From an uncultured Candidatus Saccharibacteria bacterium (GTDB lineage Bacteria > Patescibacteriota > UBA1384 > GWA2-35-9 > CAYZGQ01), in the NCBI GenBank assembly GCA_964478135.1, contig CAYZGQ010000001.1, positions 3,365-67,364 of the forward strand: a stretch of 64,000 nucleotides of DNA, in the 5' to 3' direction. The notes beneath the pieces are model-generated. The model worked only from the letters and a program-made list of their open reading frames with translations. It did no database searches and was not told the origin of the DNA. The position numbers and the translations under genes are program-made. This document shows, piece by piece, positions 12,644 to 55,486 of this stretch (within the stretch, counting starts at the first letter, position 1; the number at the start of each line of letters is the position of its first letter).

Positions 12644-13207
12644 ATGCCACGGAGGGGACTTAATTATCTTCTTTTTAGTTTAGTTGTTGTTTCGGCGATT
12701 TTGATGATCCTTTTTTGGCGCAGGAGTCCCAAACAGCCAGTTGACCGGCTGGCCCAGGAGCAGAAAGCGGCCGTTCTCTTTACCAGCGCCAAGGAGGCCC
12801 AAACATCGAGAGACTTTAAAACCGCGGTTGCCCGCTATCAGGAAGCGATCTCGTTCAACCCGAATGAGCCGGTTTATTTTGAGTCGCTCGGAGTCGCCCA
12901 GTATAACATTAAGGATTACCGGGGGGCGATTGCCAGTTTTGAGCAGGCGCTCAAATTGACGCCCGGGAGCGCCTTTTTATGGAACGGTTTGGCCAACGCC
13001 GCTCGCGACAGCGGCGATCGCCAGAGAGCCTTTGAGAGCTACCGCAAGGCGATCGAGCTTGACCCGGGTTTTTTGGTCGGCTACACCAACTTGGCTTACC
13101 TTTACCGAGACCAAGGCGCGGTTGACCGGGCTAAGGAGGTAATCGCCGAAGGTCTGGCCAAAAATCCCGACTCGGTTGAGTTGAAAGACATTTTAAAAAA
13201 CCTATGA
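12644..13207 (+). CDS. membrane-anchored TPR-repeat protein
   Basis: N-terminal TM helix, then 3-4 TPR units (A..Y..AI...P.......LG.A......Y..A...F..AL.L.P). The stop overlaps the next ATG (ATGA at 13204-13207). Confidence 0.8.
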   Translation: MPRRGLNYLLFSLVVVSAILMILFWRRSPKQPVDRLAQEQKAAVLFTSAKEAQTSRDFKTAVARYQEAISFNPNEPVYFESLGVAQYNIKDYRGAIASFEQALKLTPGSAFLWNGLANAARDSGDRQRAFESYRKAIELDPGFLVGYTNLAYLYRDQGAVDRAKEVIAEGLAKNPDSVELKDILKNL

Positions 13208-16200: not shown

Positions 16201-19200
16201 TTTGACACTTCAACCGGCTCTAATAATTCCCATCAGGTTGAATGGAACGCCGCTACCGAGGCAAACTTCAAAAATTATCTTGTCCTGCGTTCAACCGATG
16301 ACGTCAGTTATTCGACGCTCTCAACCATTACCGATTCAACCATCCGCAACTATCGAGACTCCAGCCTTGACTCGGCTACGACTTACTACTATAAGATTCG
16401 GACGACCGACCAGGCTGACACGGCGACCGATACGGCCGCCGTGTCGAACAAACCCGGCGCCCCGACCCTCTCGGCGATTTCTTCCGGCACGCCCGGGACC
16501 AACTCGGCCACCATTACTTGGACTTCAAGCGAAAACGGCAGTTCAGAAGTTCGACTCGGGACCTCAAGCGGCAGTTATGGTCTTGGCGTTCGGGGCAACA
16601 ATGCCGACTCGGCTACCTCCCATTCCCAGTTGGTTTCAAATCTCAATCCCAATACGACCTATTACTACATCGTTAGGTCTCGAGACGGCAGTGGACTGGC
16701 GACCACCTCGGCCGAGAATAGTTTTACCACCGCGGCCAAAGTTTCAGCCAGCTCTCTTGCCTCGAGCGTCAGTCACACGACCGCCACCCTGACTTGGAAC
16801 ACCACTGGCACCAACACCTCGAGTGTTGTTGACTGGGGAACCTCAAGCGGCAGCTACAGCCGATCAGACGGCGACGCCGACGCTTCAGAGACGACCCACT
16901 CGGTTACCTTGAAAGGACTAGCTCCGGGCACGACCTATTACTGGCGGGTCAACTCGACCGATTCAAACCTAAATGCCATTACCTCGACCGAGCAGAACTT
17001 GACCACGACCGCCAGACCGGCGATTTCATCAGTCTCATCCGGCACGCCCGGTCAAACCAGCGCCGCGATCACCTTTTCGACCGACCGGTCGGTCAAGGAT
17101 GTTTTTGTTGATTACATTGCTTCCTCAACAAGCGGCGCCTGCGCCAGTGTCTCGAATGCCAAAACGGTTTCGGGCGGGATCGCCGCCAGCGCCGGCACGT
17201 CCCACAGCGTCTCTTTAACCGGTCTTTCGGCCGGCACGACCCATCGGTTCAGAGTTCGAGTGATCGAGCTTGACGCTTCAGCTGAGAGCGCCAATCAACA
17301 GGTTCAAACGATTGATGACAACTCCGGCGCCTGCTACAGCTTTACCAGCGCGACCGACTCGACCGCTCCGACTATTTCCAATCTCGCTTCCGGCAACATC
17401 ACCAACACCTCGGCGGTTATCACTTGGGAGACCGACGAGCCGGCGACCGGCCTTGTTTCGGTCAGCTCTTCAAGCGGTTTTGGTTTTGCCAGCGGCAGCC
17501 AGACAACCGCCAACCCCTCGGCCAATAATCAGAAACAGACCGCCGTTATTACCGGGTTGACCAGAAACACAACCTACTATTTCTTGGCCCGGTCGGTTGA
17601 CGGTTCAAATAATGCCACGACTGCTCCTGAAGCTTCATTCACGACGACCGGCGACGCGACCGGTCCGGTTATTTCCGGCTTGACCGCAAGCTCGATCACG
17701 ACCGACGGCGCCCTCATAACCTGGACGACCGACGAGCCGGCCACGACTCAAGTCAACTATGGCCAAACGACCAATCTGGGCTCGTCCTCGGCCAAAGATG
17801 AAAAGCTTGATCGCAATCACCGAGTCACGCTATCCGGTCTTTCGGGCGCCACGCTCTATTACTTCCAGGTGGTTTCCCAAGACGCCAACGCTAACGAGAC
17901 CAAGAGCCCTGTTTCCTCGACCACCACCTTGACCACCCAGACCGTGCCGAGTGTCTCGAGCATCTCGCTGGGAGAGATTAGTTCAAAAACAGCGACTGTC
18001 AGCTGGAGCTCCAATCTCGCTGGCGATTCGTTCGTCGATTATGGTCTGACTTCGAGTTATGGTTCGCGTCAAGGTCGAGCTGATGACAGCCAAACCGCAC
18101 ACTCAATCACTCTCTCTGGCTTGAAGTCCTCGACCACTTATTACTTTCGAGTCAGAACAAAAGATTCAAACGGCAACGAAGTCATCTCGTCTGGTTCAAG
18201 CTTTACAACCGAGAGCTCGGAAGACGATGTCTCGTCTGACAAATTGGCCCCGGTCATCAGCGGCAATGAAGCCAGCCTCTCTGGTCTAACCGATACTCGA
18301 GCGACAATCAGCTGGACAACCAACGAGGAGTCAACCTCGAGGGTGGATTATGGTCTTGACCAATCTCTCAATCAGTCCCAAAGCGACGATACTTTTGTGA
18401 CCAAGCATGAATTGAAGTTGACCGGCCTTGAAGCGGGCAAGAAGTATCGTTTTCAAGTCTCGAGTCTCGATCGAAACAAGAACCGCGGCAAAGGGAGCGT
18501 TCAAGAGTTTACGACCGCCAAGTCTTCGGCCATTTCCGACGCTTCGCTCGTCACTCAAGAGCTCGATAAACTGATCCTTTCGGTTCAAACGACCGAGGCG
18601 ACCAAGGTGAGGGCTCTCTTTGGCGCCGGTTTGGACAGACTTGACTCCGAAGTTTCAAGTCTGGGCGCCGAGACCTCGAGCCACGCCTTTGTGATCGAGA
18701 ATCTCACTCCGGGGACGGCCTATTATTTTCAGTTTTCGGTTAAGGACAAGTTTGGTCAGGAAACGACCACACCGAGTTTTTGGAAGTTTGAAACTCGAGC
18801 CTTGCCGAAAATTACGGCCGTTAATGTAACCGACCAACAGGCGACCCAGGCGGTCTTGTTGGTTTCAGTCAACACTAAAGCCCAAGTGATCGCGGCTTAC
18901 ACCGATCTTAATAGCAAAAGCCGGAGCGTTGGCTCTGGAGCGCTGGCCGAAAAGCACGAAATTAGGCTGGACGGTCTGAAACCAGAAGCAACCATTCCAG
19001 TTGCCTTGACCGCGATTGACGCATCTGGCAATCAGGCCGTTTTTCAAACCAATGTTTCGACCACCGGCGATCGGTCCGCGCCCGAATTTCAAAAAATCGA
19101 GACCGAGATTATCGGCGGGAGCGGCAACAAAGGGGCGACGATCATCGTCTCGGCGGTGCTTAGCGAGCTGGCGACACTTAATGGTCAGGCCGGTCTGGCC

Positions 19201-19461
19201 GCCAGCAATCAGACGCCGATAACCACGCCCAAAAACGCCGCCGCTAAGGAACAGACATTGGTTTTTCGGAATCTGCCTTCTGGTCAGTTTGTTAAGTTTA
19301 AGCTGATAGCCGAAGATCCGGCAGGCAATGTCACAGAGTCGCCCGACATCACCACCTTTACCCCGGAGCCGAGTAAAAGCGCTCTGACCCTTATCACGAC
19401 TCAACTTGAAACTATCTTCGGCGGTCTGGGAAAAGGCCTTCAGTCTTTATTTGGCAAGTAA
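13204..19461 (+). CDS. giant (2085 aa) membrane-anchored surface protein: duplicated Gly-rich beta-helix-like modules plus a long array of FN3-like domains
   Basis: Basic N-terminus followed by a TM helix (LTSLILIVFGTLGLVLTA). Two homologous Gly-rich modules. Two 'IQIDDNSDFSS' modules. At least 10 repeats of the type '..ATITWTS.E..SS.V.YG..S..Y......d....tH.v.L.gL.p.TtYYfrV.S.D..GN'. Confidence 0.85.
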   Translation: MKRHLIKTLERLLHLRRRTTGRVHAHLVGRWGWYRIWHEFPFHRQVHLTSLILIVFGTLGLVLTATRPALATDYTVSTNSTWCDSGDLPASIGNLTINSGVTLTLGGTSGNAVNGQNTGGTDACSYEAPSSGVSWTMTGTGTLTVNGTIKVQSEISGSTGGTVKIDFATVTVASGGKIHADSTGFLSCNTSGCTGGGAGGGQWTSGYYGGGGGHGGKGGTGHITNGKGGSVNGNSFAPVTLGSGGAGGSQGAGGGAVYINSSGTVTVTGTVSANGEVSNSSVGGGGSGGSIYITAATVAGAGTVTTTGGDGGSASAGAGGGGRVDIRYSTANTFSVANATAATGSTGVAGDAGTIIFIDSTNKDGYIYKTFTFSAAQGIDTNLATTTDGIFNFRDLTLGDASNTATVLAISTGTSPNGKGPTLNLTGNFTLASGSTFSANGTGYSGGSTTGVGPGGGTWASGFYGGGGGYGGAGATGSSSYGVGGPTYGSASAPIDLGSEGGGDLASSSGDGGGAIRINATSGTVTINGTISANGSAGGSSVSAGGSGGSIYITAATTAGTGSITANGGAGGSGSAGGGGGGRLGLYYVTAQNHTGSRTASLGSGGTGGSAGTVTLKSIPAAPTLSSPADADGVSTTPALQFSTTNAGTNENVQYYIQIDDNSDFSSVTQTIDQTASQTGWTGQDRANGTSATAGSSFYASSTSATFTVQTALTTNTTYYWRVRAIASGGSNIYGSYSSSRSFVTNDPPQVSITNTPSQDSSGNIAINYNICDTNHSTLTMRVQFTTNNSIYTTVAAGALSGTNSFGSVTGVSSNCASPSAKTVTFDVSADSNVPASYYSAASGNWKVRIQADDGIANGQINSTASSAFELDNVSPATPTHSSPANASYTNDTTPDLTGSAYSDDTTQTNLRIQIDDNSDFSSVAVDYTKGASGVTFTVGQAVGSGTYTAGSAGQTLADGTYYFRLRYTDSKGNLSSYSTGTSFTVDATSPVAPSSFNIFDTSTGSNNSHQVEWNAATEANFKNYLVLRSTDDVSYSTLSTITDSTIRNYRDSSLDSATTYYYKIRTTDQADTATDTAAVSNKPGAPTLSAISSGTPGTNSATITWTSSENGSSEVRLGTSSGSYGLGVRGNNADSATSHSQLVSNLNPNTTYYYIVRSRDGSGLATTSAENSFTTAAKVSASSLASSVSHTTATLTWNTTGTNTSSVVDWGTSSGSYSRSDGDADASETTHSVTLKGLAPGTTYYWRVNSTDSNLNAITSTEQNLTTTARPAISSVSSGTPGQTSAAITFSTDRSVKDVFVDYIASSTSGACASVSNAKTVSGGIAASAGTSHSVSLTGLSAGTTHRFRVRVIELDASAESANQQVQTIDDNSGACYSFTSATDSTAPTISNLASGNITNTSAVITWETDEPATGLVSVSSSSGFGFASGSQTTANPSANNQKQTAVITGLTRNTTYYFLARSVDGSNNATTAPEASFTTTGDATGPVISGLTASSITTDGALITWTTDEPATTQVNYGQTTNLGSSSAKDEKLDRNHRVTLSGLSGATLYYFQVVSQDANANETKSPVSSTTTLTTQTVPSVSSISLGEISSKTATVSWSSNLAGDSFVDYGLTSSYGSRQGRADDSQTAHSITLSGLKSSTTYYFRVRTKDSNGNEVISSGSSFTTESSEDDVSSDKLAPVISGNEASLSGLTDTRATISWTTNEESTSRVDYGLDQSLNQSQSDDTFVTKHELKLTGLEAGKKYRFQVSSLDRNKNRGKGSVQEFTTAKSSAISDASLVTQELDKLILSVQTTEATKVRALFGAGLDRLDSEVSSLGAETSSHAFVIENLTPGTAYYFQFSVKDKFGQETTTPSFWKFETRALPKITAVNVTDQQATQAVLLVSVNTKAQVIAAYTDLNSKSRSVGSGALAEKHEIRLDGLKPEATIPVALTAIDASGNQAVFQTNVSTTGDRSAPEFQKIETEIIGGSGNKGATIIVSAVLSELATLNGQAGLAASNQTPITTPKNAAAKEQTLVFRNLPSGQFVKFKLIAEDPAGNVTESPDITTFTPEPSKSALTLITTQLETIFGGLGKGLQSLFGK
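13741..14200 (+). repeat. Gly-rich beta-helix-like module, copy 1 (coding)
   Basis: ADSTGF...GGGAGGGQWTSGYYGGGGGHGGKGG...GGGAVYINSSGTVTVTGTVSANG...GGSGGSIYITAATVAGAGTVTTTGGDGG...GGGGRVDIRY. Homologous to copy 2. Confidence 0.75.
14518..14985 (+). repeat. Gly-rich beta-helix-like module, copy 2 (coding)
   Basis: ANGTGY...GPGGGTWASGFYGGGGGYGGAG...GGGAIRINATSGTVTINGTISANG...GGSGGSIYITAATTAGTGSITANGGAGG...GGGGRLGLYY. Confidence 0.75.
16450..19380 (+). repeat. tandem array of at least 10 FN3-like domains of about 90-100 aa each (coding)
   Basis: Recurrent pattern A.ITW.T.E..SS.VdYG.tS..Y......d....tH...L.GL...TtYYfrV.S.D..GN. Confidence 0.75.
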
Positions 19462-27445: not shown

Positions 27446-30400
27446 TTGATCCCGCTGGCACAAGCAGGCCAGCTTTTTGGCTATTCAGCCGGTCATATGA
27501 ACTATTTAGCCCGGTCAGGGAAAATAATCGCTTTGAAACTCGGGGGTCAGTGGTACACGACTCGGGCGGCTGTTTCAGCCTACCAGGCCGGTCAACCCCA
27601 ACCGGAAAACCCGACCGGATTTATGTCTTTAGCCCAAGCGGCCAAGCAGTATGGCTATAGCGCCGGACATCTCAACCTTTTAGCCCGAGAAGGTAAGCTT
27701 GAAGCGGTGAAACTTGGGCGAAACTGGTACACGACCGAGCGCGCTATCGACCAGTACCGACAAGGCGTGCGTGAGATAGAATTAGTGCCAGATAGTCCTG
27801 ACCCGGCGCTCCAGATATCCCAGCCAGAAAATATTAATGTTAAAGTCAGGCCAGTAGCCAGTTACCAGGGATTTGGCATAACCGAAACCGATGATGACGC
27901 GCCAGGTCCGACCGGGGGATTTAGGCTCAAGTCAGTTATGGTCAGCCGTGGTTTTAAGCTCGGGTTGATCACACTTATAGTGTCTGGGCTGGCTTTTGGA
28001 CTGGGACGACTGGTTCAAGGCTGGCGCACGGGTGAGTTGAATGGACTGGGGCCATCTGGCATCGCGGCTTATTTGTTTGGTGGAGAGTTGGCCCAAGGAG
28101 ATCGTCTGGGCTCGGGTTTTCTCGGCAGTATCACACGAGAGCGAGCTCAATCCGATACGCCTGGGGTCAGACCCGAGGCGAGCCCTAGTCCGGACACTGT
28201 GGTCAATAACACGACAGTCAACAACTATAACCAGACCGTTAACAACGACAATCGTCAGGTGACAAACATCAGTACAACCAAAACTGCTAAAGATATTGTT
28301 GGAGAGTTATCCGACCCGCAGGTGAGTGATGACATCACGATTAACTCGAGCAAGGCTGGTTCGTTTAGTCCAAGCGGTAACACTACTGCCTTGACGGTCA
28401 AGCAAAGTTCAGCCAGTCCCTCGGAAACCCCGATCGTTAAGATTCAAAACGCGTCTGGGGCTAACCTTGTCACAGTTGATTTTGAAGGCAATTTAGGTCT
28501 GGCTGGTGGATCTAGATTGGAAATAGGCGGTCAGCAAATAGGAATTGCCAATCTAGCGGATGGATCTTCTATCGCGTCTCTTTCCGGTAGTCAAACTCTG
28601 ACTAATAAAACTTTGAGCGCGGGCGTTATCTACCAAGGATCGGCGATTAGCCCGAGCTACGGCGGGACCGGTCTAACATCAGCTCCCAGCAACGGCCAAC
28701 TCTTGATCGGCAATGGCTCGGGTTATACTCTGGCGGCTCTAACGGCTGGGACGGCAATTAATGTGACCAACGGTTCTGGTTCAATTACGATCGCTAATTC
28801 AGGTGTTACCTCGCTATCTGCCGGAACCGGCATCGCTGTTAGCGGTTCGTCGGGCGCGGTTACACTGACCAATTCGGGCGTGACCGCTCTGACCGGCACA
28901 ACCAACCAGGTCAGCCTGTCTGGTTCAACCGGTTCGATCACCATCTCAACGCCCCAAAACATTCATACCGGCGCCAGTCCAACCTTTTCAAGGCTCAATT
29001 TATCCGAGGCGTCCAATCAGTTGGTTCTTCAGTCAAATAGTGTTACAGGCAGTCTGACCTGGACGCCGGTCACATCCAATAAAACGATCACTCTGCCTAA
29101 TCTCACCGGAACCGCTTTTTTGATTGATGGAGGCCAGACGATCAGCTCTGCTGTCTGGAACGCTAGCGCTATCGGCCCGAGCTATGGCGGGACTGGTCAG
29201 ACGACCCTGGCCAAGGGTGATATTTTGTATGGCTCGGCGACTGATATTTGGTCGCGACTGGCTGTTGGCAGTATTGGTTATGTCCTCCAGGTCTCCCTAG
29301 ACGGCGTTCCAGAATGGGCGACTATTTCTTCCTTATCTGTTGGTAATGCTGACACGCTTGATTCGCTTGATTCAGCGGATTTTTTGCGCGCGACCGCCTC
29401 GGACACTTTTGAAGGAGTTAATTCAAGAACCCTGACCATTCAGTCTGATCTTTCCTCAGGCGCGAGGACGGTTGACCTTTTGACGATCAGCCAGGCGAAC
29501 GATCCAACCAATAACTTTACGACTGGCAATCTCCTAACAATTGCCCAACTCGACACCGGTTCGTCGGCCGATGCCTTAGAACTTAATCAGACTGGATCTG
29601 GTAAGGCTATTAACATTGTTTCAGGCGAGCTGGCGACAGCCGGCAACATCGTTCAAACCGGGGCAACCACGCTGTCAACCGGCACGGGCGCGGTCTCGCT
29701 CGGGGGTGACACGACCATCGCTACTGGAAAGAACTTGACTCTCGCGTCCGGGACAGGCACTTTTAGTCAGATTTTTAGTAATACGACCGGTACTGGAGCA
29801 AACTGGAATATCACTAACTCTGGTTCTTCTGGGACTAACACTGTTGGCGGGATAGGATTAGTGTTGGCTGGAACCGCCAACACGACTGGTTCGAATGTGA
29901 TTAATGCTATTAATTTTTCCAATGTCCCTCCGGCGACCAATAATTCTTATTACGCCCTGAATGTCGGAACCGGCTTTACTGATATTGTACGCTACAATGG
30001 CGCCCAGTTGATCTCTGGCTCGGGTGTCATTCAATCGGCCGCGCTTTCTGGTAACTACACTGGTGTTACTGGAGTTGGGATTTTATCCACCGGCACCTGG
30101 AATGCAGACACAATCATCTTTGCCAAGGGCGGCACGGGCTTAACAGCCACGCCCAGCAATGGCCAACTCTTGATCGGCAATGGCTCGGGTTACACTCTGG
30201 CCGGCTTAACCGGCACTACCAATCAGATCAATGTCGCTAGCGGGGCCGGTTCGATCACCCTCTCAACTCCCCAAAACATCCATACCGCCGCCAGTCCAAC
30301 CTTTGCCGGTTTGACTTTGTCCGACTTGACCCCTGGTTCTTTGGTCTTTGCCGGCGCCGGCGGGGTGATCAGCCAGGACAACGCCAAGTTCTTCTGGGAT

Positions 30401-32896
30401 CAGACAAATACTCGATTGGGTCTCGGGACAAGTTCGCCACTTTTTCCGATTCATGTTGTTAGATCGGGCGGTGGCGGGACGTTGAATTTTGACACTTACG
30501 CCGGTTCTGGACTGGGCAACAGCGCCATTCAAGGTCGGCGGGCGGCCGGAACTTTGGCCAGCCCGACAGCCACTCTGTCGGATATGACTCTGTTCGATCT
30601 GCTTGGGTCTGGCTACGACGGTTCAGCTTTCACCGGACAGATCGCTTCGATACGCATGCAAGCCAATCAGAATTTTAGCCCGACCAGTCAGGGCACCAGG
30701 ATTGTCTTTTTGACCACGGCCAATGATTCGACGACCGCGACTGAACGGCTGCGGATCAAACACAATGGCGATGTGGCAATCGGCAACGGCTCGACCGATC
30801 AGATATTATTTGGTTCGACCGGCTCGGCGGTCTTCAACGAACAGGGCAATGATGCCGATTTTCGGGTCGAGGGCGACACCGACGCCAATCTATTGTTCAC
30901 CGACGCTTCGGCCGATGTCTTGGGTGTCGGCACCGCGACCTTCGAAGCCAACACCCGCAAGATGGAGGTGAGATACACCGATACCGCGACCTCCGGAGGC
31001 ACCTTTTCAACGATTAGATTGCTTTCGGACATCAATGCTCCTTCTAACTCCACGGCATCCCATTTTGGTCTAGGAACGACTTTAAGAACCGCGAGCGGCA
31101 ACGCTTCCAACTACACCGACTCCACGACAGGTATTAAGGCGATGAACTTTGTCGTCCAGCACCGAGGCACAGGCACGGTTACTAGAATGACAGGCTTGGG
31201 CGGCAATGTCACCAACAGCTCAAGCGGTACGATTACGACTGCCGAGAGCATCGTGGCTGGGGTTGACCTGACCTCAACCGGTCCGATTACTACTTGGAAC
31301 GCCCTGCGGGTCTTCGCGCCCTCTATCACTGGCTCTGGGGTGCTGACTAACGCTCGCGGGCTTTACATCAGTAACATCACAGGGGCCTCCACGCAGAATC
31401 TAGCTATCCTGACAGAAGGGGGCGGAGTAGTCTTTAATGAAAACGGCACGGACAGCGATTTCCGGGTCGAGGGCGACACCGATGCCAATCTATTGTTCAC
31501 CGACGCTTCGGCTGATCGGGTTGGTATAGGGACAAACACCCCTTCGCTCAAACTTCACGTGGTGGACAACTCTTCAACTTCGGCTATTTTCCAGCGCAAC
31601 AGCACTGCCACCGGTTCGAGTGTTGGCTCAACGGTTTTTTTGGATAATTTGGACACCACGACCAACAATGGAGCTCGTTTGATTTTTAGAACCAACGATA
31701 CTGGCGGCGCAACCAGGCAAGCGGCTGGAATAGGCTCGCTCGTAACCGCCCGGGGTGCTAGCAGTGTGACTGGCGATCTGGTATTCCTGACCAACAACAA
31801 CTCAACCGGCGTTTCCGAGGTTGCTCGGTTAACCGGAGCGGGCGCGCTTGGCATTGGTGAGTCGCCGGCGGCCAATATGAAGCTTGATGTCGCTGGCCGG
31901 GTTCAGATTAATCTGGCCGGAACCCAAACCTCGGTTGCCTTGTGCGGTAGTCACCCGGCTGGCGGCGGGGCCTCGGTTTCCGATGTCGAGATTGTTGACT
32001 GCACCGGCACGCCGGCGGCTGACTATGCCGAGATCTATCCGGTTTCAAACGATGTTGAATACACTGATTTAGTGGCTATCGGACCGGATTCGGTTAAAAC
32101 CACCGATCAAAACTCGATTCAAAGGCTAGTCAAAGCTACGATCGCCAATCAAGCCAACACTTTAGGAGTCGTTGTTGACAACTACGGCGATTTCTCCTCG
32201 GTCGGTCACAACATTAAAGGTTCTGATAATCCCAAACCGGTCGCGCTTTCAGGCCGGGTGAGAGTGAAAGTTTCCGGCCAGTCGGGCGCGATAGCGCCCG
32301 GCGATTATCTGACCGCCTCGTCCAAACCCGGTCGGGCGATGAAGGCGACCTCAAGCGCCAAGATAGTTGGAGTGGCTTTGGGATCATTTAGCGGCGACGA
32401 GGGGACGGTAATGATGTTTGTCAGCAATTTCTGGTATAATCCGTCTTCGGGCGAGAGTATTCAGGGTACCCAAACTGCATCCTACCAGGCGCTCGAAGTT
32501 GCCGGCCTTTTGCGAACGAATCTTTTGGAGGTTGCCGGGCCAGCCGAGTTCAAAGGTAGTTTAGTTGTCTGGGGTGAAACAACCTTTAAGGCACCGGTTG
32601 TGGTTCAAAAGACGCTGACTGCTAAAGAAAAGATCGTGTCCAAAGGTGACCTTGAGCTCAAGGGCAATCTTGTTCTAAACCCCGACATTAAAGGGTCAGC
32701 CTTGCCAGTGACTAAGGGCGCGACCAGCCTTGAGGTCGTGTTTAGCAAGCCCCAAGCTGACACAAGCTACTTGGCTTTCGTCACGCCATCCCAGCCGATC
32801 GGTTTTGGCGTTACCAAACAATCTGACAAAATGATCGTTACCTTTGAGGCCGAGGCGCCGGAAGGATTAATCCTGGATTGGCTGATAGTCAGATGA
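27446..32896 (+). CDS. giant (1816 aa from TTG 27446) membrane protein: 2x HTH_17-like repeats, one TM helix, tail-fibre-like ectodomain
   Basis: Two N-terminal repeats (LAQAGQLFGYSAGHMNYLARSGKIIALKLGGQWYTT.AAV.AY and LAQAAKQYGYSAGHLNLLAREGKLEAVKLGRNWYTTERAIDQY). TM helix FKLGLITLIVSGLAFGLG. Ectodomain with repeated ..YGGTG(L/Q)T..PSNGQLLIGNGSGYTLA.. and NE.G.D.DFRVEGDTDANLLFTDASAD motifs. The frame is open from 27392, so the start is uncertain. Confidence 0.85.
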   Translation: MIPLAQAGQLFGYSAGHMNYLARSGKIIALKLGGQWYTTRAAVSAYQAGQPQPENPTGFMSLAQAAKQYGYSAGHLNLLAREGKLEAVKLGRNWYTTERAIDQYRQGVREIELVPDSPDPALQISQPENINVKVRPVASYQGFGITETDDDAPGPTGGFRLKSVMVSRGFKLGLITLIVSGLAFGLGRLVQGWRTGELNGLGPSGIAAYLFGGELAQGDRLGSGFLGSITRERAQSDTPGVRPEASPSPDTVVNNTTVNNYNQTVNNDNRQVTNISTTKTAKDIVGELSDPQVSDDITINSSKAGSFSPSGNTTALTVKQSSASPSETPIVKIQNASGANLVTVDFEGNLGLAGGSRLEIGGQQIGIANLADGSSIASLSGSQTLTNKTLSAGVIYQGSAISPSYGGTGLTSAPSNGQLLIGNGSGYTLAALTAGTAINVTNGSGSITIANSGVTSLSAGTGIAVSGSSGAVTLTNSGVTALTGTTNQVSLSGSTGSITISTPQNIHTGASPTFSRLNLSEASNQLVLQSNSVTGSLTWTPVTSNKTITLPNLTGTAFLIDGGQTISSAVWNASAIGPSYGGTGQTTLAKGDILYGSATDIWSRLAVGSIGYVLQVSLDGVPEWATISSLSVGNADTLDSLDSADFLRATASDTFEGVNSRTLTIQSDLSSGARTVDLLTISQANDPTNNFTTGNLLTIAQLDTGSSADALELNQTGSGKAINIVSGELATAGNIVQTGATTLSTGTGAVSLGGDTTIATGKNLTLASGTGTFSQIFSNTTGTGANWNITNSGSSGTNTVGGIGLVLAGTANTTGSNVINAINFSNVPPATNNSYYALNVGTGFTDIVRYNGAQLISGSGVIQSAALSGNYTGVTGVGILSTGTWNADTIIFAKGGTGLTATPSNGQLLIGNGSGYTLAGLTGTTNQINVASGAGSITLSTPQNIHTAASPTFAGLTLSDLTPGSLVFAGAGGVISQDNAKFFWDQTNTRLGLGTSSPLFPIHVVRSGGGGTLNFDTYAGSGLGNSAIQGRRAAGTLASPTATLSDMTLFDLLGSGYDGSAFTGQIASIRMQANQNFSPTSQGTRIVFLTTANDSTTATERLRIKHNGDVAIGNGSTDQILFGSTGSAVFNEQGNDADFRVEGDTDANLLFTDASADVLGVGTATFEANTRKMEVRYTDTATSGGTFSTIRLLSDINAPSNSTASHFGLGTTLRTASGNASNYTDSTTGIKAMNFVVQHRGTGTVTRMTGLGGNVTNSSSGTITTAESIVAGVDLTSTGPITTWNALRVFAPSITGSGVLTNARGLYISNITGASTQNLAILTEGGGVVFNENGTDSDFRVEGDTDANLLFTDASADRVGIGTNTPSLKLHVVDNSSTSAIFQRNSTATGSSVGSTVFLDNLDTTTNNGARLIFRTNDTGGATRQAAGIGSLVTARGASSVTGDLVFLTNNNSTGVSEVARLTGAGALGIGESPAANMKLDVAGRVQINLAGTQTSVALCGSHPAGGGASVSDVEIVDCTGTPAADYAEIYPVSNDVEYTDLVAIGPDSVKTTDQNSIQRLVKATIANQANTLGVVVDNYGDFSSVGHNIKGSDNPKPVALSGRVRVKVSGQSGAIAPGDYLTASSKPGRAMKATSSAKIVGVALGSFSGDEGTVMMFVSNFWYNPSSGESIQGTQTASYQALEVAGLLRTNLLEVAGPAEFKGSLVVWGETTFKAPVVVQKTLTAKEKIVSKGDLELKGNLVLNPDIKGSALPVTKGATSLEVVFSKPQADTSYLAFVTPSQPIGFGVTKQSDKMIVTFEAEAPEGLILDWLIVR
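28685..28987 (+). repeat. intragenic duplicated segment, copy 1 (PSNGQLLIGNGSGYTLA ... GSITISTPQNIHTGASPTF)
   Basis: 28685-28736 is near-identical to 30152-30203 (about 3 mismatches in 52 nt). 28931-28987 is near-identical to 30248-30304 (4 mismatches in 57 nt). Confidence 0.85.
30152..30304 (+). repeat. intragenic duplicated segment, copy 2
   Basis: See copy 1. In this copy the two conserved blocks are only 44 nt apart, against 194 nt in copy 1. Confidence 0.85.
30857..30916 (+). repeat. 60-nt intragenic direct repeat, copy 1 (DFRVEGDTDANLLFTDASAD)
   Basis: Matches 31457-31516 at 57 of 60 nt by eye. Confidence 0.85.
31457..31516 (+). repeat. 60-nt intragenic direct repeat, copy 2
   Basis: Matches 30857-30916 at 57 of 60 nt by eye. 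Confidence 0.85.
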
Positions 32897-41503: not shown

Positions 41504-44500
41504 ATTAATTCAAGACAGAATGAGACTTGGGGGTTTAGTCTAGGAGAGTCTCTTGCGAAGCCCTTTATATGGCTAGTGCTGGGTGTTTTAGCCCTGCTCG
41601 GTCTGGTTTTAGTCAGTCCTTCGGCCGTCCAGGCCGGTGCAATCACCGGTTTGTCGGTTACAGTCAGTGACACGAGCGTCCAAGGGACGGCTGACTGGAC
41701 AATTGCCCTGACTCCAGAACAGTCAGTCCCAGCCAAGTCAAATGGCGGTCGGATTCACATGTGTGTCTATGGACCAGGCTCGATGAGTTTTCGGGATGGT
41801 TCTGTCGCGCTCGATTCGTCGGCTAGCACGAGCGGTTTGTCAATCTATGAACGGTTGGGAAATTGTATCACCCTTCAGTCAAACAGCGAGATCGCAGGAG
41901 GAACGGTTATCACTGCCAAACTGACAGGGGTTAGAAACCCAGACAAAGCCGGACGGTATGTTGGTCACATCTACAGCTCGACCTACGGCACCGCCCGAGA
42001 CGGCACCTCTCGCTGGGGCGGGCTCTACAATAGTTCTTTTACCATCGGCGATTTGACCAAGAACACTATTTCAGGTACGGTCACAGATGCCAATGGCGCA
42101 CCGGTCCGGTTTGCCTCCGTCTCTGTTTGGGGTAGCGGCGGCGGCGCTTGGGGCTACAGCTACACCGATCAAAATGGCCAGTACGCGATCGGCAGTCTAA
42201 CCACTGGCTCCTACAACTTTAGCGTCTACGGTCCCTACAACGAAGACGGTATCTTTTATTTTGCGCCTGATGTTTCGAGTATTTCAATTTCCGATACTTC
42301 GGCCACGACCAAAAACGCCAGCTTTTTAGCGACTCCCAAAACATTGCAAATTAAGGTTGAGGACGGCTCTGGTACAGCCATAACCGATGCCTATGTCTCG
42401 ATCTGGTCCAGAAACGGGAATGGTTGGGCTCAAACCAAAAACAACACCAACGGAGTCTACAAGATTAATGTTCCGAAAAACCGGACTTTTGGGTTTAGCG
42501 TTTATCCCCAAAATTGGCCTTCAACCTGGCAGTCATGCGGCAGTTATAACGAAGAAGTTACGACCGCCAACACCGATACGGCCGAGACTGTCAGTAAGAC
42601 GTTTAAGGTTTCCTCGCTCAACGCCACGGTCAAAGGTAAGATTGAGCGGTCTGACGATAGCACGCCCAAGCGCTGGTCAGTGAGCGTGAGTTTCCAGTCA
42701 AGCGGAGGTTGCTGGGCTTCAGCCGACTTTCCCGACGACACTGGTAATTTCAGCGCTAAAGTTGTCAGTGGCGAGACTATCACCGCGACTGGTTGGGTTT
42801 CGAGTGATCTCAACGAATCATTCCCAACGGTCAGTAACTTTTCGGTCCAAGCCAACCAAGAGCACAACCTGGGCGTAATCAAACTTAAAAAGCGTGATAA
42901 AAAGCTCGCTGTGACGGTTGTGGACAAAAATGGCGATCCGGTTAACAAGGCCAACGTCTACGCTTGGAAAACTGGCGGTTCGTATGAATATGCCAACGGC
43001 ACAACTGGCTCCGATGGCAATGCGGAACTCTTTTTGAGTCCAGGCAGCTGGAATGTTTCGGCCGGGCCAGAGTACCGCTGGAATGGCTCAAACAACGAAT
43101 ATGACTATGTCTCCAACTGGAAGTCTCAATTGATCAGCTTTTCCGAGTCAGACACGACTAAAACGATCAAGTTTATCTTCCAAAAGGTTACCTCAACGAT
43201 TAATGTCACCGTGACCGATGAGGCTGGGAGCGTCCTTAACCTATCGGGTAGTTTGTCGGCCAACGATGGTTCGCAAGAATGGTCAAATATCTGGTCCCAG
43301 CTCAATAGTGGCAAAGGCAAGCTTAGGGTTCCCCGAGGGACCTGGAGTGTTAACGCCAGTATTTGGGATGAGACCTATAGCTCACCAAATCCGGTTGACA
43401 TCACGATCGGTGATAATGAGACCAAAGAGATCAAGCCCAAGGCCTTGATCAATGATTCGACCATTTCCGGCAAAATCTACACAGAAGATGAAGATGGTAA
43501 CCGGACCCTGCTTAAAAACACTTGGCTTAGCATCTATGCTAACAAAAAAAATTCCTACTCTTCTTGGCGGTCAGCCTCGGTCAACCAAGAAGAAGGAACC
43601 TATTCGATCAAAGTTTCCTCGGGTGACTGGAGGCTCGGTTACTGGTTTTATAACAACAATTATATGTCAGGATACGGGAACGAAGTTGATGTATCGGTTA
43701 AATCAGGTGAAACTAAGACCCAAGATATTATTCTGCGCAAAGCTAACTACACCATCTCGGTCAAGGCGCTCGATCCAGACGGCAAGGCGCTGATGGGGGC
43801 TTGGATCACGGCTGACACGCGCAATCCTAAAGAGCGGACCGAAGCTGGTACTTGGTACTCAACCGGTACCTCAACCAATAATCAGGGAGAGGGGACGATT
43901 CAAGTGTCAGCCAACACTTACTGGATTAGTGGTTCGATGTGGTCAGGTTATATCAGTCCAGAGCGCCAAGAGGTTAAGGTCAATAAAGACAATCCAACTG
44001 CCAGTGTCACTCTCCAGTTCGGTCGGTCTGATGCGACTATATCTGGCACAGTCAAGCTCGATGACAAAGGGACTAAGTCGTTTGTTAATGCGGTCAGCGA
44101 GAAAGGCCGCTATGCCGAGACTAATTCAAGTAACGAAGGCCATTACATCCTCAACGTCTCGAAAGACGACACTTGGGTCGTCAAGGCAGTTAAAAAGGAT
44201 GGCGCAACTTTGTATCGATCAGACAAGAATCGAGTTGATCTCACTGGTAAGACCACGGGCATAGTCAATCTCGATTTGGTAAAAGAAACAATCAAGTTGC
44301 CGGAGGGGACGACCAGCACCTTTAATGCCAGCCAGTCAACTACCGTTAAGATTAAAAATGGCAATGTTGACGAAGTGATCATCACTGTTCCGACTGGCAC
44401 CCTGTCGAGCGATAATGAACAGATAACTGTAACGGCCGATGTGACCGAAGAGGTCACCGACACTTCAACTAGCGAGCCTGTTTTCGACTACGGTTATGAC

Positions 44501-45193
44501 ATCAACGCCAACGGTAGCCAATCCGGCACAATCAGCCAGTTGAAGGATAACGTGACCGTGACCGTAAACTATTCGGCCAACGAGCAGGCGATCCAAGATG
44601 AGGGAACAGAAGAGGACCTAGTGGTAGCCCGTTTCAACAACGAGAAAGGTGAATGGGAGCAACTCCAAGGTTGCGCTACAAACAAGGATGACAACACTAT
44701 TACCTGTCAAAATAATCACTTCACCAAGTTTGCGGTTGTCGCTTCAACCGACATCACCCCACCTTCTGCTCCAGGTAGCCAGAAGGCGATTGCTTCGAAC
44801 GCTAAGATTTCTTTAAGCTGGAGCAAGCCAAGCCAGGCCGACTTTGCCGGGGTTAACATCTATCGGTCAACCGAGAGTGGCAAGCTGGGTGATAAGATTT
44901 ACGGCAAAAATACCTCCACCAGTCACGACGATACGGTTCTGATCAACGACACGGTCTATTACTATACCCTCAAGTCAGTTGACAAAGCCGGTAACGAGTC
45001 AACCGCATCCGATCAGCTCAAAGCCAAGCCTTCAGCAACCTCGCCGGAGTCATCGGACGGTTCAACCACTGCCACGCTCTCAATTCTGCCCAAGACTGGT
45101 CAACCAGCCTCGCCTTTGAATTGGTTGTTGGCGATTCTGACAGTGATCAGCCTGGCCGGGGTCAGGGCATCGAGGATTGTCCGGATTAAGTGA
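41504..45193 (+). CDS. LPKTG-anchored giant surface protein (1229 aa if ATT 41504 is the start; 1205 aa from GTG 41576)
   Basis: GGAGG 41495-41499, then N4, then in-frame ATT 41504. This start adds an n-region (MNSRQNETWGFSLGESLAKPFIW) in front of the hydrophobic core LVLGVLALLGLVLVSPSAVQA. The body has CarboxypepD_reg-like repeats (ISGTVTDANGAPVRFASVSVW...TDQNGQYAIGSLTTGSYNF). The C-terminus has an FN3 domain, then LPKTG 45086-45100, a hydrophobic stretch and RIVRIK. Confidence 0.8.
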   Translation: MNSRQNETWGFSLGESLAKPFIWLVLGVLALLGLVLVSPSAVQAGAITGLSVTVSDTSVQGTADWTIALTPEQSVPAKSNGGRIHMCVYGPGSMSFRDGSVALDSSASTSGLSIYERLGNCITLQSNSEIAGGTVITAKLTGVRNPDKAGRYVGHIYSSTYGTARDGTSRWGGLYNSSFTIGDLTKNTISGTVTDANGAPVRFASVSVWGSGGGAWGYSYTDQNGQYAIGSLTTGSYNFSVYGPYNEDGIFYFAPDVSSISISDTSATTKNASFLATPKTLQIKVEDGSGTAITDAYVSIWSRNGNGWAQTKNNTNGVYKINVPKNRTFGFSVYPQNWPSTWQSCGSYNEEVTTANTDTAETVSKTFKVSSLNATVKGKIERSDDSTPKRWSVSVSFQSSGGCWASADFPDDTGNFSAKVVSGETITATGWVSSDLNESFPTVSNFSVQANQEHNLGVIKLKKRDKKLAVTVVDKNGDPVNKANVYAWKTGGSYEYANGTTGSDGNAELFLSPGSWNVSAGPEYRWNGSNNEYDYVSNWKSQLISFSESDTTKTIKFIFQKVTSTINVTVTDEAGSVLNLSGSLSANDGSQEWSNIWSQLNSGKGKLRVPRGTWSVNASIWDETYSSPNPVDITIGDNETKEIKPKALINDSTISGKIYTEDEDGNRTLLKNTWLSIYANKKNSYSSWRSASVNQEEGTYSIKVSSGDWRLGYWFYNNNYMSGYGNEVDVSVKSGETKTQDIILRKANYTISVKALDPDGKALMGAWITADTRNPKERTEAGTWYSTGTSTNNQGEGTIQVSANTYWISGSMWSGYISPERQEVKVNKDNPTASVTLQFGRSDATISGTVKLDDKGTKSFVNAVSEKGRYAETNSSNEGHYILNVSKDDTWVVKAVKKDGATLYRSDKNRVDLTGKTTGIVNLDLVKETIKLPEGTTSTFNASQSTTVKIKNGNVDEVIITVPTGTLSSDNEQITVTADVTEEVTDTSTSEPVFDYGYDINANGSQSGTISQLKDNVTVTVNYSANEQAIQDEGTEEDLVVARFNNEKGEWEQLQGCATNKDDNTITCQNNHFTKFAVVASTDITPPSAPGSQKAIASNAKISLSWSKPSQADFAGVNIYRSTESGKLGDKIYGKNTSTSHDDTVLINDTVYYYTLKSVDKAGNESTASDQLKAKPSATSPESSDGSTTATLSILPKTGQPASPLNWLLAILTVISLAGVRASRIVRIK
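45086..45100 (+). other. LPKTG sortase-recognition motif codons
   Basis: ctg ccc aag act ggt, followed by QPASPLNWLLAILTVISLAGV and a basic tail. Confidence 0.85.
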
Positions 45194-52017: not shown

Positions 52018-52410
52018 ATGGCAAAGCATCTGGCTATTTTTAGCCCTAATCAACTGATCGAAAAAATTTTTCGCTCTATCAAGACGGTTGATGGTCGCTT
52101 GACCCAAGACCGAGTCGCTCCCTATGGGTTGGTTAAAAAAGGCGACACAATCCTGATTAAAATCAGCGGCGGACCGGTTTTAGGTCAGGTTGAAGTGGAT
52201 AACGTTTTGTTTTTTGAGCTGACAGATGGGGAACTATTGGGTAAACTTCGGAAAGAGTATGGGGCTGACATGGCGGTTGACGATCGTTTCTGGGAACTTA
52301 AACGAGAGGCCCGCTTTGCCAGCATCATCTTCTTAACCAAACCCAAACGTTACCTGACGGCGCTCAAGTTCAAAAAGCGCGATCGCCGGGCTTGGGTCGT
52401 AGTGGGATAA
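52018..52410 (+). CDS. ASCH (PUA-like) domain protein
   Basis: 130 aa. IFSPNQLIEKIFRSIKTVDGRL....VKKGDTILIK..GGPVLGQVEVDNV fits the ASCH pattern (...I..G.KT.E.R.....i..GD.i.l......v.g.v.v..v). Confidence 0.5.
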   Translation: MAKHLAIFSPNQLIEKIFRSIKTVDGRLTQDRVAPYGLVKKGDTILIKISGGPVLGQVEVDNVLFFELTDGELLGKLRKEYGADMAVDDRFWELKREARFASIIFLTKPKRYLTALKFKKRDRRAWVVVG

Positions 52411-52427: not shown

Positions 52428-52544
52428 TTGACAATTATTCGTCGGTCGATTTTATCGGTCGGCTCGTGCATTTTAATGGCGGAAAATTTGTCGGATTGTG
52501 GGATTAGTGGATCGATGGCAAAGCTAAAAGGAGGTAGGGAATGA
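52428..52544 (+). CDS. candidate 38-codon small ORF (below ORF-track threshold)
   Basis: The orphan strong SD GAAGGAGG 52413-52420 sits 7 nt upstream of TTG 52428. Translation is MTIIRRSILSVGSCILMAENLSDCGISGSMAKLKGGRE. Its TGA overlaps the ATG of the next gene (ATGA 52541-52544). Confidence 0.3.
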   Translation: MTIIRRSILSVGSCILMAENLSDCGISGSMAKLKGGRE

Positions 52545-53404
52545 ACAATCTTACTCTAGAAAATCTTTCCTTGCCCAAGGAAGATTATTTTAAGATCAAC
52601 TTTCAAGTTACCGATGAGATGTGCCTGGGTCATTTTGATCCCAAACGACACTACGGGGTCTTGCCTGGTGCGTACCTTTTTGGGTTGGTTTGTGATTATT
52701 TCACCCAGAATAATAACCGTTCAATCACTGCAATTACTAAAGCTCAATTTACCCGACTGATACTACCGAGCATGGAGGTGTTAATCGAAGTTTGGATCAA
52801 GGGCAATCAGGTAAGAGTGGTTTGTTTTGCCGAAGGCCGGTCGGCGGCTACCATGGATCTGTTGCTGACCGAGTTGTCCGGGTCACAGGACGATTGCCCA
52901 GGCGCAGTGTCTTTGGCCGGAACTTATCTCCCATCCGATCAACTTAATGACTTATTGCCGTTTAGTTCTGATTTTATATTGATTCGGGATGTCGTAATCG
53001 GAGAGGATTGTTCCTTCTGTCTTGTTAGATCGAAACAAGACCCTCGTTTTTTTGACGATCAAAGGTTAAAATTGTCGGGTCTGATCGAAGCCGGTAATCA
53101 TTTATTAATCACTCACGTCTTATCACTCCATCAGGAGCTCGTCGGACAGGTGCCGTTTCTGGTCAGGCTGACCGATGTCAGCTTCTCGGGCCCTCGACTG
53201 GTTAATCCGAATTGTGTTCTACTGATGGTTGATAATCTTAATATGCGAGGTAATCACGGACGTGCTCGAGTAATCGGCTGTCAGACGGATGTAACAGAAA
53301 TCTACCGGGCTCAAGTTAGCTTCCGTAGTGACTCAAGTGGTGTCGAGCATAAATACCAACCCGGTACGCCAGTACCGAGCAACCCATCCCCAGCTTTGCC
53401 TTGA
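52541..53404 (+). CDS. tandem (double) hotdog-fold protein, FabZ/FabA-like
   Basis: The N-half has CLGHFDPKRHYGVLPGAYLFG (compare FabZ GHFPGKPIFPGVLILEA). The C-half has DPRFFDDQRLKLSGLIEAGNHL. See the findings for details. Confidence 0.6.
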   Translation: MNNLTLENLSLPKEDYFKINFQVTDEMCLGHFDPKRHYGVLPGAYLFGLVCDYFTQNNNRSITAITKAQFTRLILPSMEVLIEVWIKGNQVRVVCFAEGRSAATMDLLLTELSGSQDDCPGAVSLAGTYLPSDQLNDLLPFSSDFILIRDVVIGEDCSFCLVRSKQDPRFFDDQRLKLSGLIEAGNHLLITHVLSLHQELVGQVPFLVRLTDVSFSGPRLVNPNCVLLMVDNLNMRGNHGRARVIGCQTDVTEIYRAQVSFRSDSSGVEHKYQPGTPVPSNPSPALP

Positions 53405-54152
53405 ACCGGCTAAAACGGTGGTAATAACTGGCGGATCGGGGACGATCGGTCGAGCGATGGTCTGGCAATTCGGGGCCAATGGCTGCGACGTAGTGGTCCA
53501 GTATAATAGAGACGAACCGGCGGCTCGATTTACTGCCGAGTCAGCCCAACGGCAGTTTGGGGTCAAGACCTGGCTTGTCCAGCAAGATTTTGCTCAACCA
53601 GGATCTGGCAAGAATTTCTGGCTCAATGTCAAAGCTATAGTCGGCCAAACCCCGGACATTCTGGTCATCAATGCCGGTTTCCTTGGCATCGGATCAAACG
53701 GGCTTTCCCTGACTGAAGAAGAATTATATGACAGTATCCAAGTCAACGCCGTGCAACCGTTTTTCTTAATGCAGGCGATGATGAATGACCCGGACACCCC
53801 CTCTGATTCCCAAATCTTGGTCCATCTTTCTAAGGGTTGGGACAAGTGGCTGCCCGGTTACGCTGGATTAGGCATGGCCAAAGCCCTTCTGATGCGGATG
53901 GTCATTGAACTAGCCCAAGTAGGAGCGCCCCGCCGTATTTGCGTCAACGCCATTACGAGCGACCTAGTTGCCCAGACCGACGTTATGAATTGGTTTCCCC
54001 CTCATGAGGTCGCGCTCCACCTCGATCGGATGCCCTTTGGGAGACTGATATACCCAGAGGATGTGGCAATATTTTTCTGCCACACTGCCTGTAACTTAGG
54101 TGTTACCGGCCAAAACCTTGTGTTCGATGGCGGGGTAGGGAATGTAGCATGA
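53328..54152 (+). CDS. SDR-family enoyl-[ACP] reductase-like protein (FabL/FabI-type Y-x6-K)
   Basis: VVITGGSGTIGRA (TGxxxGxG), NAG, and PGYAGLGMAKALL (Y-x6-K, as in FabI NYNVMGLAKASLE and FabL NYTTVGVSKAALE). The GTG start at 53328 has no SD and overlaps the hotdog gene by 77 nt in the +1 frame, so the start is uncertain. Confidence 0.7.
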   Translation: MTQVVSSINTNPVRQYRATHPQLCLEPAKTVVITGGSGTIGRAMVWQFGANGCDVVVQYNRDEPAARFTAESAQRQFGVKTWLVQQDFAQPGSGKNFWLNVKAIVGQTPDILVINAGFLGIGSNGLSLTEEELYDSIQVNAVQPFFLMQAMMNDPDTPSDSQILVHLSKGWDKWLPGYAGLGMAKALLMRMVIELAQVGAPRRICVNAITSDLVAQTDVMNWFPPHEVALHLDRMPFGRLIYPEDVAIFFCHTACNLGVTGQNLVFDGGVGNVA

Positions 54153-54223: not shown

Positions 54224-55486
54224 ATGGCGAATCGTCACTCTAGTTCGAGCCGACTTTCAGTCCCCGAGATTAAGGTGAGCCTCAAAAAGTTGCCTCGGTC
54301 ACGGGTTGCGCTGACGATTAGAGTATTCCAACAAATGTTAGGCGCCACGGCCAAACGGGTCTACTCAGCCATTGCTCCCCAAGTGACAGTGGCCGGCTTT
54401 CGGCCGGGCAAGGCGCCGATTGACAAAACGATCGAGGCGTTCGGTCGCGTCCGTTTTAGCAACGAAGTCCTTAACTTAGCCCTAAAAGAAAGCTACCAGC
54501 AGGGGCTTGAGAAAAATCAACTTGTGCCAGTGGCTGGGCCCTCAATCAGCTTGGCGGCTTGGCGGCTCGACGAGCGTGGCCGGCCGCTTGAGAATCTAGT
54601 CTACACGGCTGAAGTTGATGTCATGCCCAAGGTGTCAGTCAGCGGCTACCAGTCGATCCGTCTCAAAGACTATCAACCGTTGTCAAGCGAGGTGACCGAT
54701 CAGGAGGTTGAGGCGGTGTTAGATCATTTGAGCCGTCAGCGGGGTGAGCTCAAACCGCTTGACCGACCGGCGAGACTGGGAGACTGGATCCTTATTAGTT
54801 TTAAGGGCAGTATCGAAGGTGTGGTCAAAGAGCCGCTCACGTCAAAAAATTATCCTCTTGTTCTTGGGTCGAGGCGAATGGTCCATGGTTTTGAAGATAA
54901 TGTGGTTGGTATGAAGGCTGGTCAAAAAAAAACCTTTGAGTTGAGACTGCCCAAGTCAATCAAGGATTTGGGCGGCCGGAGAGCGGGCTTTGAAGTTTTG
55001 CTCCATGAGGTTAAAGAAATTATTAAGCGGCCGATTGACCAGGCCTTTGCCCAGTCTCTTGGTCACGAATCTCTTGAGAGTCTTAAAAAGGCGATCAGGG
55101 CCAATTTAGTTCGGGAAAAGAGTCAACGGGCGCGTCAACACCTGGAACAGACCGCTATACGGGAACTGCTTAAAAAACTGTCAGTCGAGATTCCAGACAG
55201 CTTAATCGAGCGTGAGCTTGGGCGGATGCTCGATTCGATTCGTGAGAGCGTTACCAAACAGGGACTGACCATGGAGGGCTACTTGGCTTCAATTAAAAAG
55301 ACGATCGAGCAACTGGCCCAAGACCTTCGAACCCGAGCCCAAGACTCGGTTCGAGCCGGTTTAGCCTTGACCGCACTTGGCCAGGCCGAAGCAATTGATA
55401 CCAATCAGCCAGGGTCAACTAATAAAGTGATTAACAGATTGATCGAGATTGGACTGCGATCAGATAAGAAATCAGATAAGAATTGA
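54224..55486 (+). CDS. tig: trigger factor
   Basis: The N-terminal ribosome-binding region includes GFRPGKAP. An FKBP-like middle domain ([14 protein letters not shown]....) and a helical C-terminal domain follow. I chose ATG 54224 over the ORF-track TTG 54215. Confidence 0.85.

Follow-up and report, generated by a model that had tools for sequence, protein, structure and literature searches.

In the window analyzed here, a 64,000-nucleotide stretch of contig CAYZGQ010000001.1 from an uncultured Candidatus Saccharibacteria bacterium, an open reading frame (ORF) of 287 codons encodes an orphan protein, hereafter the hotdog protein (Table 1). Profile alignments show that its N-terminal half (N-half) belongs to the FabZ superfamily, with the catalytic histidine kept and a glycine at the position of the catalytic glutamate. 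A preliminary description had read the whole protein as an asymmetric tandem hotdog, with the His motif in the first half and the Glu motif in the C-terminal half (C-half). In our reading, whose chances of being right or wrong we judge to be about equal, the protein would be a fused FabZ-type pseudo-dimer with one composite site, to which the N-half contributes H31 and the C-half E183, and would work with the FabL-like reductase encoded immediately downstream.

The N-terminal FabZ-type Hotdog

Public profiles were silent on this protein. At E <= 1 the whole chain matched no Pfam or NCBIfam family, at E <= 10 the separate halves gave no relevant match, PHROGs and PADLOC were empty, and a sequence search of the PDB yielded chance matches only. 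Seven tandem copies of each half, together with reversed and shuffled controls, were also scanned in order to pass the HMMER filters: PF07977, whose threshold the N-half does not reach, was missing even from this Pfam scan, NCBIfam produced noise-level matches only for both halves, and the concatemer was useless as a phmmer query against the PDB.

A FabZ profile was therefore purpose-built. The first attempts yielded enterobacterial sequences only, and the diverse version, built from plasmid and viral matches, comprised 31 non-redundant sequences drawn from E. coli, from viral contigs and metagenomes, and from plasmids and chromids that span eight phyla or classes. Residues 20-115 aligned in hhalign with FabZ 51-159 of this profile at a local P of about 1e-4; the local score was reached by none of 300 composition-preserving shuffles, and the reversed sequence scored at the shuffle median. 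In global mode the z value was 9.25 and again no shuffle (0 of 400) attained the real score, while with the HMMER filters off the score was reached by 1 of 5000 shuffles for the narrow profile and by 15 of 5000 for the diverse one. This profile was the sole means by which the N-half was detected.

Three methods (hhalign, MAFFT and MAFFT --add) shared the same register, which, besides the correspondences of H31-F32 and Gly48 given in Table 1, sets P42-G43 on P62-G63 and D52 on Q72 and leaves a three-residue insertion between the His and the Pro-Gly with respect to FabZ. The segment LGHFDPKRHYGVLPGAYLFG, corresponding to residues 29-48, contains the His-Phe, the Pro-Gly and Gly48, and the catalytic His in its G-H-F(P) loop is a feature present in the N-half only. 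The earlier statement that this half keeps His-Phe and Pro-Gly and bears Gly in place of Glu was thus borne out, by three alignment methods and far beyond chance.

Structure prediction with AlphaFold2 from the single sequence gave a mean pLDDT (predicted local distance difference test) of 35. In a second run, FabZ residues 1-134 were aligned to the N-half only, keeping the C-half FabZ-independent, and the N-half was modeled as a strand, a helix and four strands at pLDDT 70-88, values that are biased by the FabZ-derived alignment. The Foldseek matches of this model, to FabZ structures and ApeI, are circular because FabZ rows were part of the input alignment.

The likeness to FabZ (E. coli b0180, PDB 6N3P, 1U1Z) covers about 95-115 columns, in which His-Phe and Pro-Gly keep their register, and extends to the modeled strand-helix-four strands order and to a neighbor gene that probably encodes the next enzyme of the fatty acid synthesis (FAS) cycle; the provision of His and acid by partner hotdogs would be preserved as well. 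By contrast, FabZ is a homodimer or hexamer and the hotdog protein a single chain with two unequal halves, in which the half that keeps the His has exchanged its Glu for Gly, has gained three residues before the Pro-Gly and has no LPHRYPF strand. It also falls below all Pfam and NCBIfam thresholds and has no lpxD/lpxA or fab-cluster context.

The C-terminal Half and the Proposed Composite Site

Against the 31-sequence profile, the local hhalign score of the C-half was reached by 19 of 300 shuffles and its global score (z = 2.4) by 11 of 400, and 186-187 of 5000 shuffles reached its HMMER scores with the diverse and narrow profiles. A sub-profile was assembled from the ten most divergent FabZ-like dehydratases, namely plasmid "FabZ family" proteins, the coronafacic-acid dehydratase and dehydratases of Streptomyces clusters, and aligned with the C-half over 87 columns at P = 0.0099 (2 of 500 shuffles). 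The weak matches are all collinear with FabZ, over 87-135 columns, and pair LLPFSSDFILIRDVV with LLPHRYPFLLVDRV, DPRFF with NEPFF and the post-helix strand VSFSGP with ARFKRP. These marginal alignments suggest that the C-terminal region may be a second, more decayed hotdog. Sequence comparison detected no mutual similarity of the two halves, which is usual for double hotdogs, whose halves share about 10% identity, have no detectable similarity to each other and are joined by long loops (PMC2698920).

In the best-scoring alignment, reached by 2 of 500 shuffles, the segment PRFFDDQRLKLSGLIEAGNHL (residues 168-188) brings E183 onto Glu68 and H187 onto Gln72 of FabZ, so that E183-x3-H187 mirrors both the E68-x3-Q72 of FabZ and the D-x3-Q/H of polyketide synthases (PKS). 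Direct reading found no histidine between the second strand and the helix of this half (residues 163-180).

The active site of FabZ is built from the His of one subunit and the Glu of the other (PMC5143422), and in PKS dehydratase (DH) domains the N-subdomain contributes the His and the C-subdomain an Asp (PMC12035518). The DH domains of PKS and animal FAS are pseudo-dimers serving one acyl carrier protein (ACP) at a time (PMC5143422, PMC12035518). In the mechanism that we propose, the N-half would give the His-Phe (H31-F32) and the Pro-Gly that opens the central helix, its own Glu having been lost to Gly48, and after a linker of about 20 residues the C-half would provide a second hotdog with D172-D173 instead of the His and with E183 as the acid. 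As in PKS/FAS dehydratase domains, one of the two sites would be dead and the other a composite His(N)/Glu(C) site. Such a protein might dehydrate 3-hydroxyacyl thioesters or hydrate enoyl thioesters, and the enoyl product would be handed to the FabL-like enoyl reductase of the abutting or overlapping downstream gene.

The complementary decay of the two halves had been put forward as notable in a stand-alone bacterial protein from a reduced genome. Hotdog domains never occur alone, and double hotdogs usually keep a single site (PMC2698920), so that losing one of the two is expected rather than remarkable. One-site double hotdogs are an established architecture; a stand-alone fusion of FabZ type, using Glu and without detectable relatives, would be out of the ordinary. 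Among known systems, the PS-DH domains of PKS and animal FAS (DEBS DH, CmiP fusion-DH) have a length of about 280 amino acids like the hotdog protein, and would share with it a one-chain pseudo-dimer whose one site takes its His from the first hotdog and its acid, with Q/H four residues further on, from the second. Differently from them, the hotdog protein stands alone outside a megasynthase, has no profile similarity to PS-DH (P = 0.46-0.74) and none of the motifs HxxxGxxxxP, GYxYGPxF and LPFxW, and its acid would be Glu, as in FabZ, and not Asp. Two non-identical hotdogs forming one unit with one site sacrificed are also found in ApeI:P (6QSR), in HadAB/HadBC of M. tuberculosis and in the MFE-2 hydratase 2, although ApeI:P and HadAB/HadBC consist of two polypeptides. 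HadAB and MFE-2 are of MaoC type, with both catalytic residues in one hotdog.

A tandem arrangement was observed in one further ORF, on the Cupriavidus metallidurans CH34 megaplasmid NC_007974.2 (about 1116769-1117613, reverse strand), which holds two tandem FabZ-like hotdog matches, the first cut by the locus end and the second with LLPHRYPF, His (GAHPP) and Glu (AIES), and which thus represents a FabZ-FabZ fusion occurring in nature. Fusion as such may therefore not be unique. Pfam reported no family for this ORF, which our own FabZ profile recognized at E = 1e-32, and Pfam negatives carry limited weight for this reason.

Evidence against the Fused Pseudo-dimer and Rival Explanations

A number of observations weigh against a fused pseudo-dimer with a composite site. 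Across six tests the C-half reached p values of 0.004-0.06, and significance was lost after correction; with the sub-profile enlarged to 15 sequences its P rose to 0.06, in a run that is not a clean replicate since the N-half score fell likewise. The pLDDT of the C-half was 25-35 even with the N-half folded, and the seven-copy Pfam scan assigned no hotdog family to it. Its LLPFSSDFILIRDVV strand is without the Tyr-Pro of FabZ LPHRYPF, and in the N-half the N-terminal FabZ strand LPHRYPFLLVDRV has no counterpart, a 17-column gap taking its place; in FabZ the cis Tyr-Pro of this LPHRYPF(L)LVDRV strand lines the tunnel. E183 falls on E68 in one of the three automated alignments, and lies 3-4 residues, i.e., one helical turn, downstream of Glu68 in hhalign -glob and in MAFFT --add, the latter also deleting the FabZ G53-H54 positions opposite the C-half. 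The protein has no homologues, and hence no conservation record for H31 or E183. The codon log-odds score, trained on 25 Pfam-supported genes within the window, is 0.12 for the hotdog ORF, at the bottom of the window range (mean 0.27), and no ACP or other gene of type II fatty acid synthesis (FAS-II) is found in the 64 kb.

The two claims made earlier for this half consequently survive in part. The assignment of Asp-Asp and Glu is recovered, with no His there, in the best-scoring alignment and is displaced by 3-4 residues in the two others; as for the fused pseudo-dimer, its FabZ hotdog stands in the N-half, whereas the hotdog fold of the C-half is left with the marginal p values and low pLDDT given above. 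In the shifted register D52 of the N-half occupies the equivalent position, so that the restriction of the Glu to the C-half depends on the register. Either register would leave at most one site with both His and acid.

The same C-half results, never significant once corrected, unfolded by AlphaFold2 and without a Pfam hotdog family even as concatemers, together with the lack of mutual similarity of the halves, would also be explained by a hotdog confined to the N-terminal ~115 residues, pairing with that of a second protein copy, and followed by ~150 residues that form an unrelated domain or a novel one. Since Gly sits at the Glu position, a homodimeric FabZ-type site would then be incomplete, and the protein could either use a different acid or assist the reductase without catalysis, by binding acyl groups or as a scaffold. 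There are counter-arguments: the weak matches of the C-half are without exception collinear with FabZ and its length of about 130 amino acids fits one hotdog, undetectable similarity of halves is normal in double hotdogs (PMC2698920), and the Pfam negative is weak, as the Cupriavidus FabZ-like ORF (E = 1e-32) was missed too. We hold a single hotdog of this kind to be possible and doubtful.

The protein may otherwise be a decaying FabZ-type relic, without enzymatic function and with both sites dead, in a lineage that has given up fatty acid synthesis. Its orphan condition, the codon bias low for the window, the loss of Glu in one half and of His in the other, the missing N-terminal FabZ motif of the N-half and a window devoid of other FAS-II genes all agree with this. 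Against a relic stand the 287 intact codons behind a consensus Shine-Dalgarno sequence, the His-Phe kept exactly in register and the tight coupling to an intact FabL-like reductase with its catalytic Tyr and Lys; the identity of three independent samples but for one substitution points in the same direction, and says little about selection as they represent the same strain. On balance we find decay improbable.

Membership of another hotdog class, i.e., a 4HBT/TesB-type thioesterase, a MaoC-type hydratase or a PKS-type DH, is very improbable, notwithstanding the nearly equal length of TesB (286 amino acids), the resemblance of E183-x3-H187 to the PKS DxxxH motif and a MaoC_dehydratas (PF01575) match of the N-half concatemer at 49.7 bits in the helix-to-strand region, which lies within the noise of the controls (up to 68 bits). 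In hhalign a MaoC profile of five PDB-derived sequences gave P = 0.15-0.48 and a PKS-DH profile of eight domains P = 0.46-0.74, and the Pfam PS-DH families (PF14765/PF21089) were empty. The hydratase-2 motif (G-D-x-N-P-[LIV]-H) was absent by direct reading of the protein, as were the PKS motifs HxxxGxxxxP and GYxYGPxF: P42 follows H31 at a distance of 11 residues, position +4 is not a Gly, and YGP does not occur. Two matches made by eye were discarded, that of the C-half to the MaoC hydratase motif as unsupported by the MaoC profile, and that to the PKS motifs GYxYGPxF and LPFxW for the wrong motif order and a null profile score. Single E. coli sequences of PaaI, YbgC, FadM and TesB gave P values of at least 0.04-0.6 in hhalign and never surpassed FabZ for the N-half, which as a comparison of single sequences is a weak test of a thioesterase; those of PaaZ-C and FabA were no better than FabZ for the N-half either. 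No Pfam thioesterase family was returned for the hotdog protein, no YbgC relatives were found in a search of viral contigs, and the GHF...PG register is specific to FabZ/FabA. A thioesterase-type origin of the halves, with other catalytic positions, had been named at the outset as the outcome that would speak against the composite site; in the thioesterase, MaoC and PKS-DH comparisons run, neither half was fitted better than by FabZ.

Gene, Copies and Lineage

The ORF and the two peptide segments quoted in the preliminary description exist where it placed them. The frame of 287 codons is uninterrupted, and in each 150-nt window, across both halves, the annotated frame has the highest codon log-odds score. 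Consensus Shine-Dalgarno sequence, in-frame coding signal and intact frame together indicate a real gene. A scan for promoters and terminators around it was uninformative. The upstream neighbor, an ORF of 130 amino acids (52018-52410), is also an orphan, its sole match being a sub-threshold ASCH (E = 0.1), and a weak terminator-like hairpin lies between the two genes (52444-52464).

TABLE 1. Features of the hotdog gene and of the adjoining reductase gene; positions refer to the window.
Feature	Coordinates	Strand	Basis
Shine-Dalgarno sequence AAAGGAGG	52527..52534	+	Direct reading; 6 nt before ATG
ORF, 287 aa, orphan FabZ-like protein, possibly tandem hotdog	52541..53404	+	ORF list
N-terminal FabZ-type hotdog domain, residues ~14-115	52580..52885	+	hhalign vs. 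FabZ profile
G30-H31-F32 on FabZ G53-H54-F55 (catalytic His-Phe)	52628..52636	+	hhalign, MAFFT, MAFFT --add
Gly48 at FabZ catalytic Glu68 position	52682..52684	+	hhalign, MAFFT, MAFFT --add
Inter-domain linker, residues ~116-135, SGSQDDCPGAVSLAGTYLPSDQ in/around it, approximate bounds	52886..52945	+	No FabZ match, pLDDT <50
C-terminal region, residues ~136-262, putative degenerate second hotdog	52946..53326	+	Marginal FabZ alignment
D172-D173 on FabZ G53-H54 in best-scoring C-half alignment	53054..53059	+	hhalign, sub-profile
Glu183, candidate catalytic acid	53087..53089	+	On E68 in sub-profile alignment
Pro/Ser-rich tail, residues 263-287, probably overlapped by 5' end of next gene	53327..53401	+	Codon log-odds
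FabL-like reductase, in operon with hotdog gene; start GTG 53328/53337/53340 or 53418	53328..54152	+	Pfam, NCBIfam, PDB

The gene was found again in three read sets and one NCBI contig (71 kb). Among the four copies the ORF differs by a single substitution, Y45C, which separates the window from Logan contig ERR4904390_2758; with this lone difference the copies represent the same strain and are uninformative on selection. The polymorphism (Tyr45/Cys, TAC/TGC, 52673-52675) falls where the putative central helix begins (PGA[Y/C]LFG).

Beyond these copies no relatives emerged. A word-indexed search of 5.8 billion proteins matched the hotdog protein to itself and to a one-residue variant only, and an exhaustive phmmer search of 1.84 billion cluster representatives to itself and to two further proteins, rejected as repeat-protein artefacts (MBG and TIG repeats). 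No papers were found in a literature search on FabZ in the candidate phyla radiation (CPR)/Patescibacteria. The isolation concerns the genome as a whole: the trigger factor of the window (54224-55486) has no relative above 31% identity when one genome is taken for each of 185,579 GTDB species, and synteny is uninformative because there is no related genome to compare. Its best relatives, 25-31% identical, belong to Clostridia, Chloroflexi, NC10, Alphaproteobacteria and Patescibacteria; the lineage has no representative among the GTDB r232 species representatives, and each conserved window protein checked is the lone member of its own 90% cluster. Most likely, the hotdog protein is a lineage-specific and very diverged member of the FabZ/FabA superfamily.

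The Downstream FabL-like Reductase and Gene Context

The next gene encodes a short-chain dehydrogenase/reductase (SDR) assigned to the Pfam families adh_short_C2 and adh_short. Its best NCBIfam family is FabL (NF005975), at 99 bits against a cutoff of 328. Among PDB entries B. subtilis FabL (3OIC) matched best, at E = 2.4e-18 and with a lead of about 13 bits over the second match. The match to this enoyl-ACP reductase III is full-length, with the Y-x6-K spacing of enoyl reductases (kept as YAGLGMAK) and the TGxxxxxG loop common to both, yet with 70-99 bits the SDR is far under the equivalog cutoff of 328. The nearest relative in the 5.8-billion collection is 31% identical, and the neighborhood of the nearest homologue is unrelated.

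Gene callers start the SDR at ATG 53457 (231 amino acids), which removes the Rossmann loop TGGSGTIG (53427-53450), so that the true start is probably further upstream. In-frame GTG codons occur at 53418, 13 nt past the stop codon of the hotdog gene, and at 53328, 53337 and 53340. The start is probably either GTG 53418 or one of the other three, which would give overlaps of 65-77 nt with the hotdog ORF. Over the 30 codons of 53328-53417, a stretch short enough to make the result weak, the SDR frame reaches +0.22, the same value as the remainder of the SDR, and the hotdog tail -0.06, thus weakly favoring an overlapping start. With genes that abut or overlap, co-translation is very probable.

Dehydratase and enoyl reductase catalyze consecutive steps of the FAS-II cycle. 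The FabL-like neighbor therefore speaks for a dehydratase or a hydratase rather than a thioesterase, and the hotdog protein would have dehydratase activity.

The surrounding co-directional genes are housekeeping ones (RRF, RseP, class II aminoacyl-tRNA synthetase, TIM, PGK, Tig, ClpP, GatCAB, LigA and glycosyltransferases), a content compatible with a reduced genome. Despite about 55 genes, no Rfam family reached its gathering score over the whole 64 kb (no tRNA, rRNA or riboswitch). Three giant ORFs (13204-19461, 27446-32896 and 41576-45193; 2085, 1816 and 1205 amino acids) carry fn3, Pur_ac_phosph_N or CarboxypepD_reg repeats, and the first two coincide with peaks in guanine-cytosine content of 0.55-0.57, the value elsewhere being about 0.49.

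Implications

The firm result is the placement of an ORFan in the FabZ superfamily, obtained with a purpose-built profile only; standard annotation misses this placement as well as the true start of the neighboring reductase. If the fused pseudo-dimer is real, it would be a natural fusion of type II (FabZ-type) that parallels the pseudo-dimeric dehydratase domains in megasynthases, and the step from homodimer to one-site double hotdog would be exemplified outside PKS and FAS. More speculatively, and rather unlikely in our estimation, the protein could be the first known representative of a family, so far unsampled, of FabZ-type dehydratases that are fused pseudo-dimers, stand alone and form with a FabL-like reductase a minimal two-enzyme module, remodeling or finishing scavenged acyl chains in an uncultured deep-branching bacterium without a recognizable FAS-II. 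Its divergence would then be so great that it left no homologue to be detected in the 1.84 billion representatives. A fused dehydratase with its coupled reductase would also point to partial acyl-chain processing in a lineage whose visible genes are otherwise housekeeping ones, and would bear on how such bacteria acquire their lipids.

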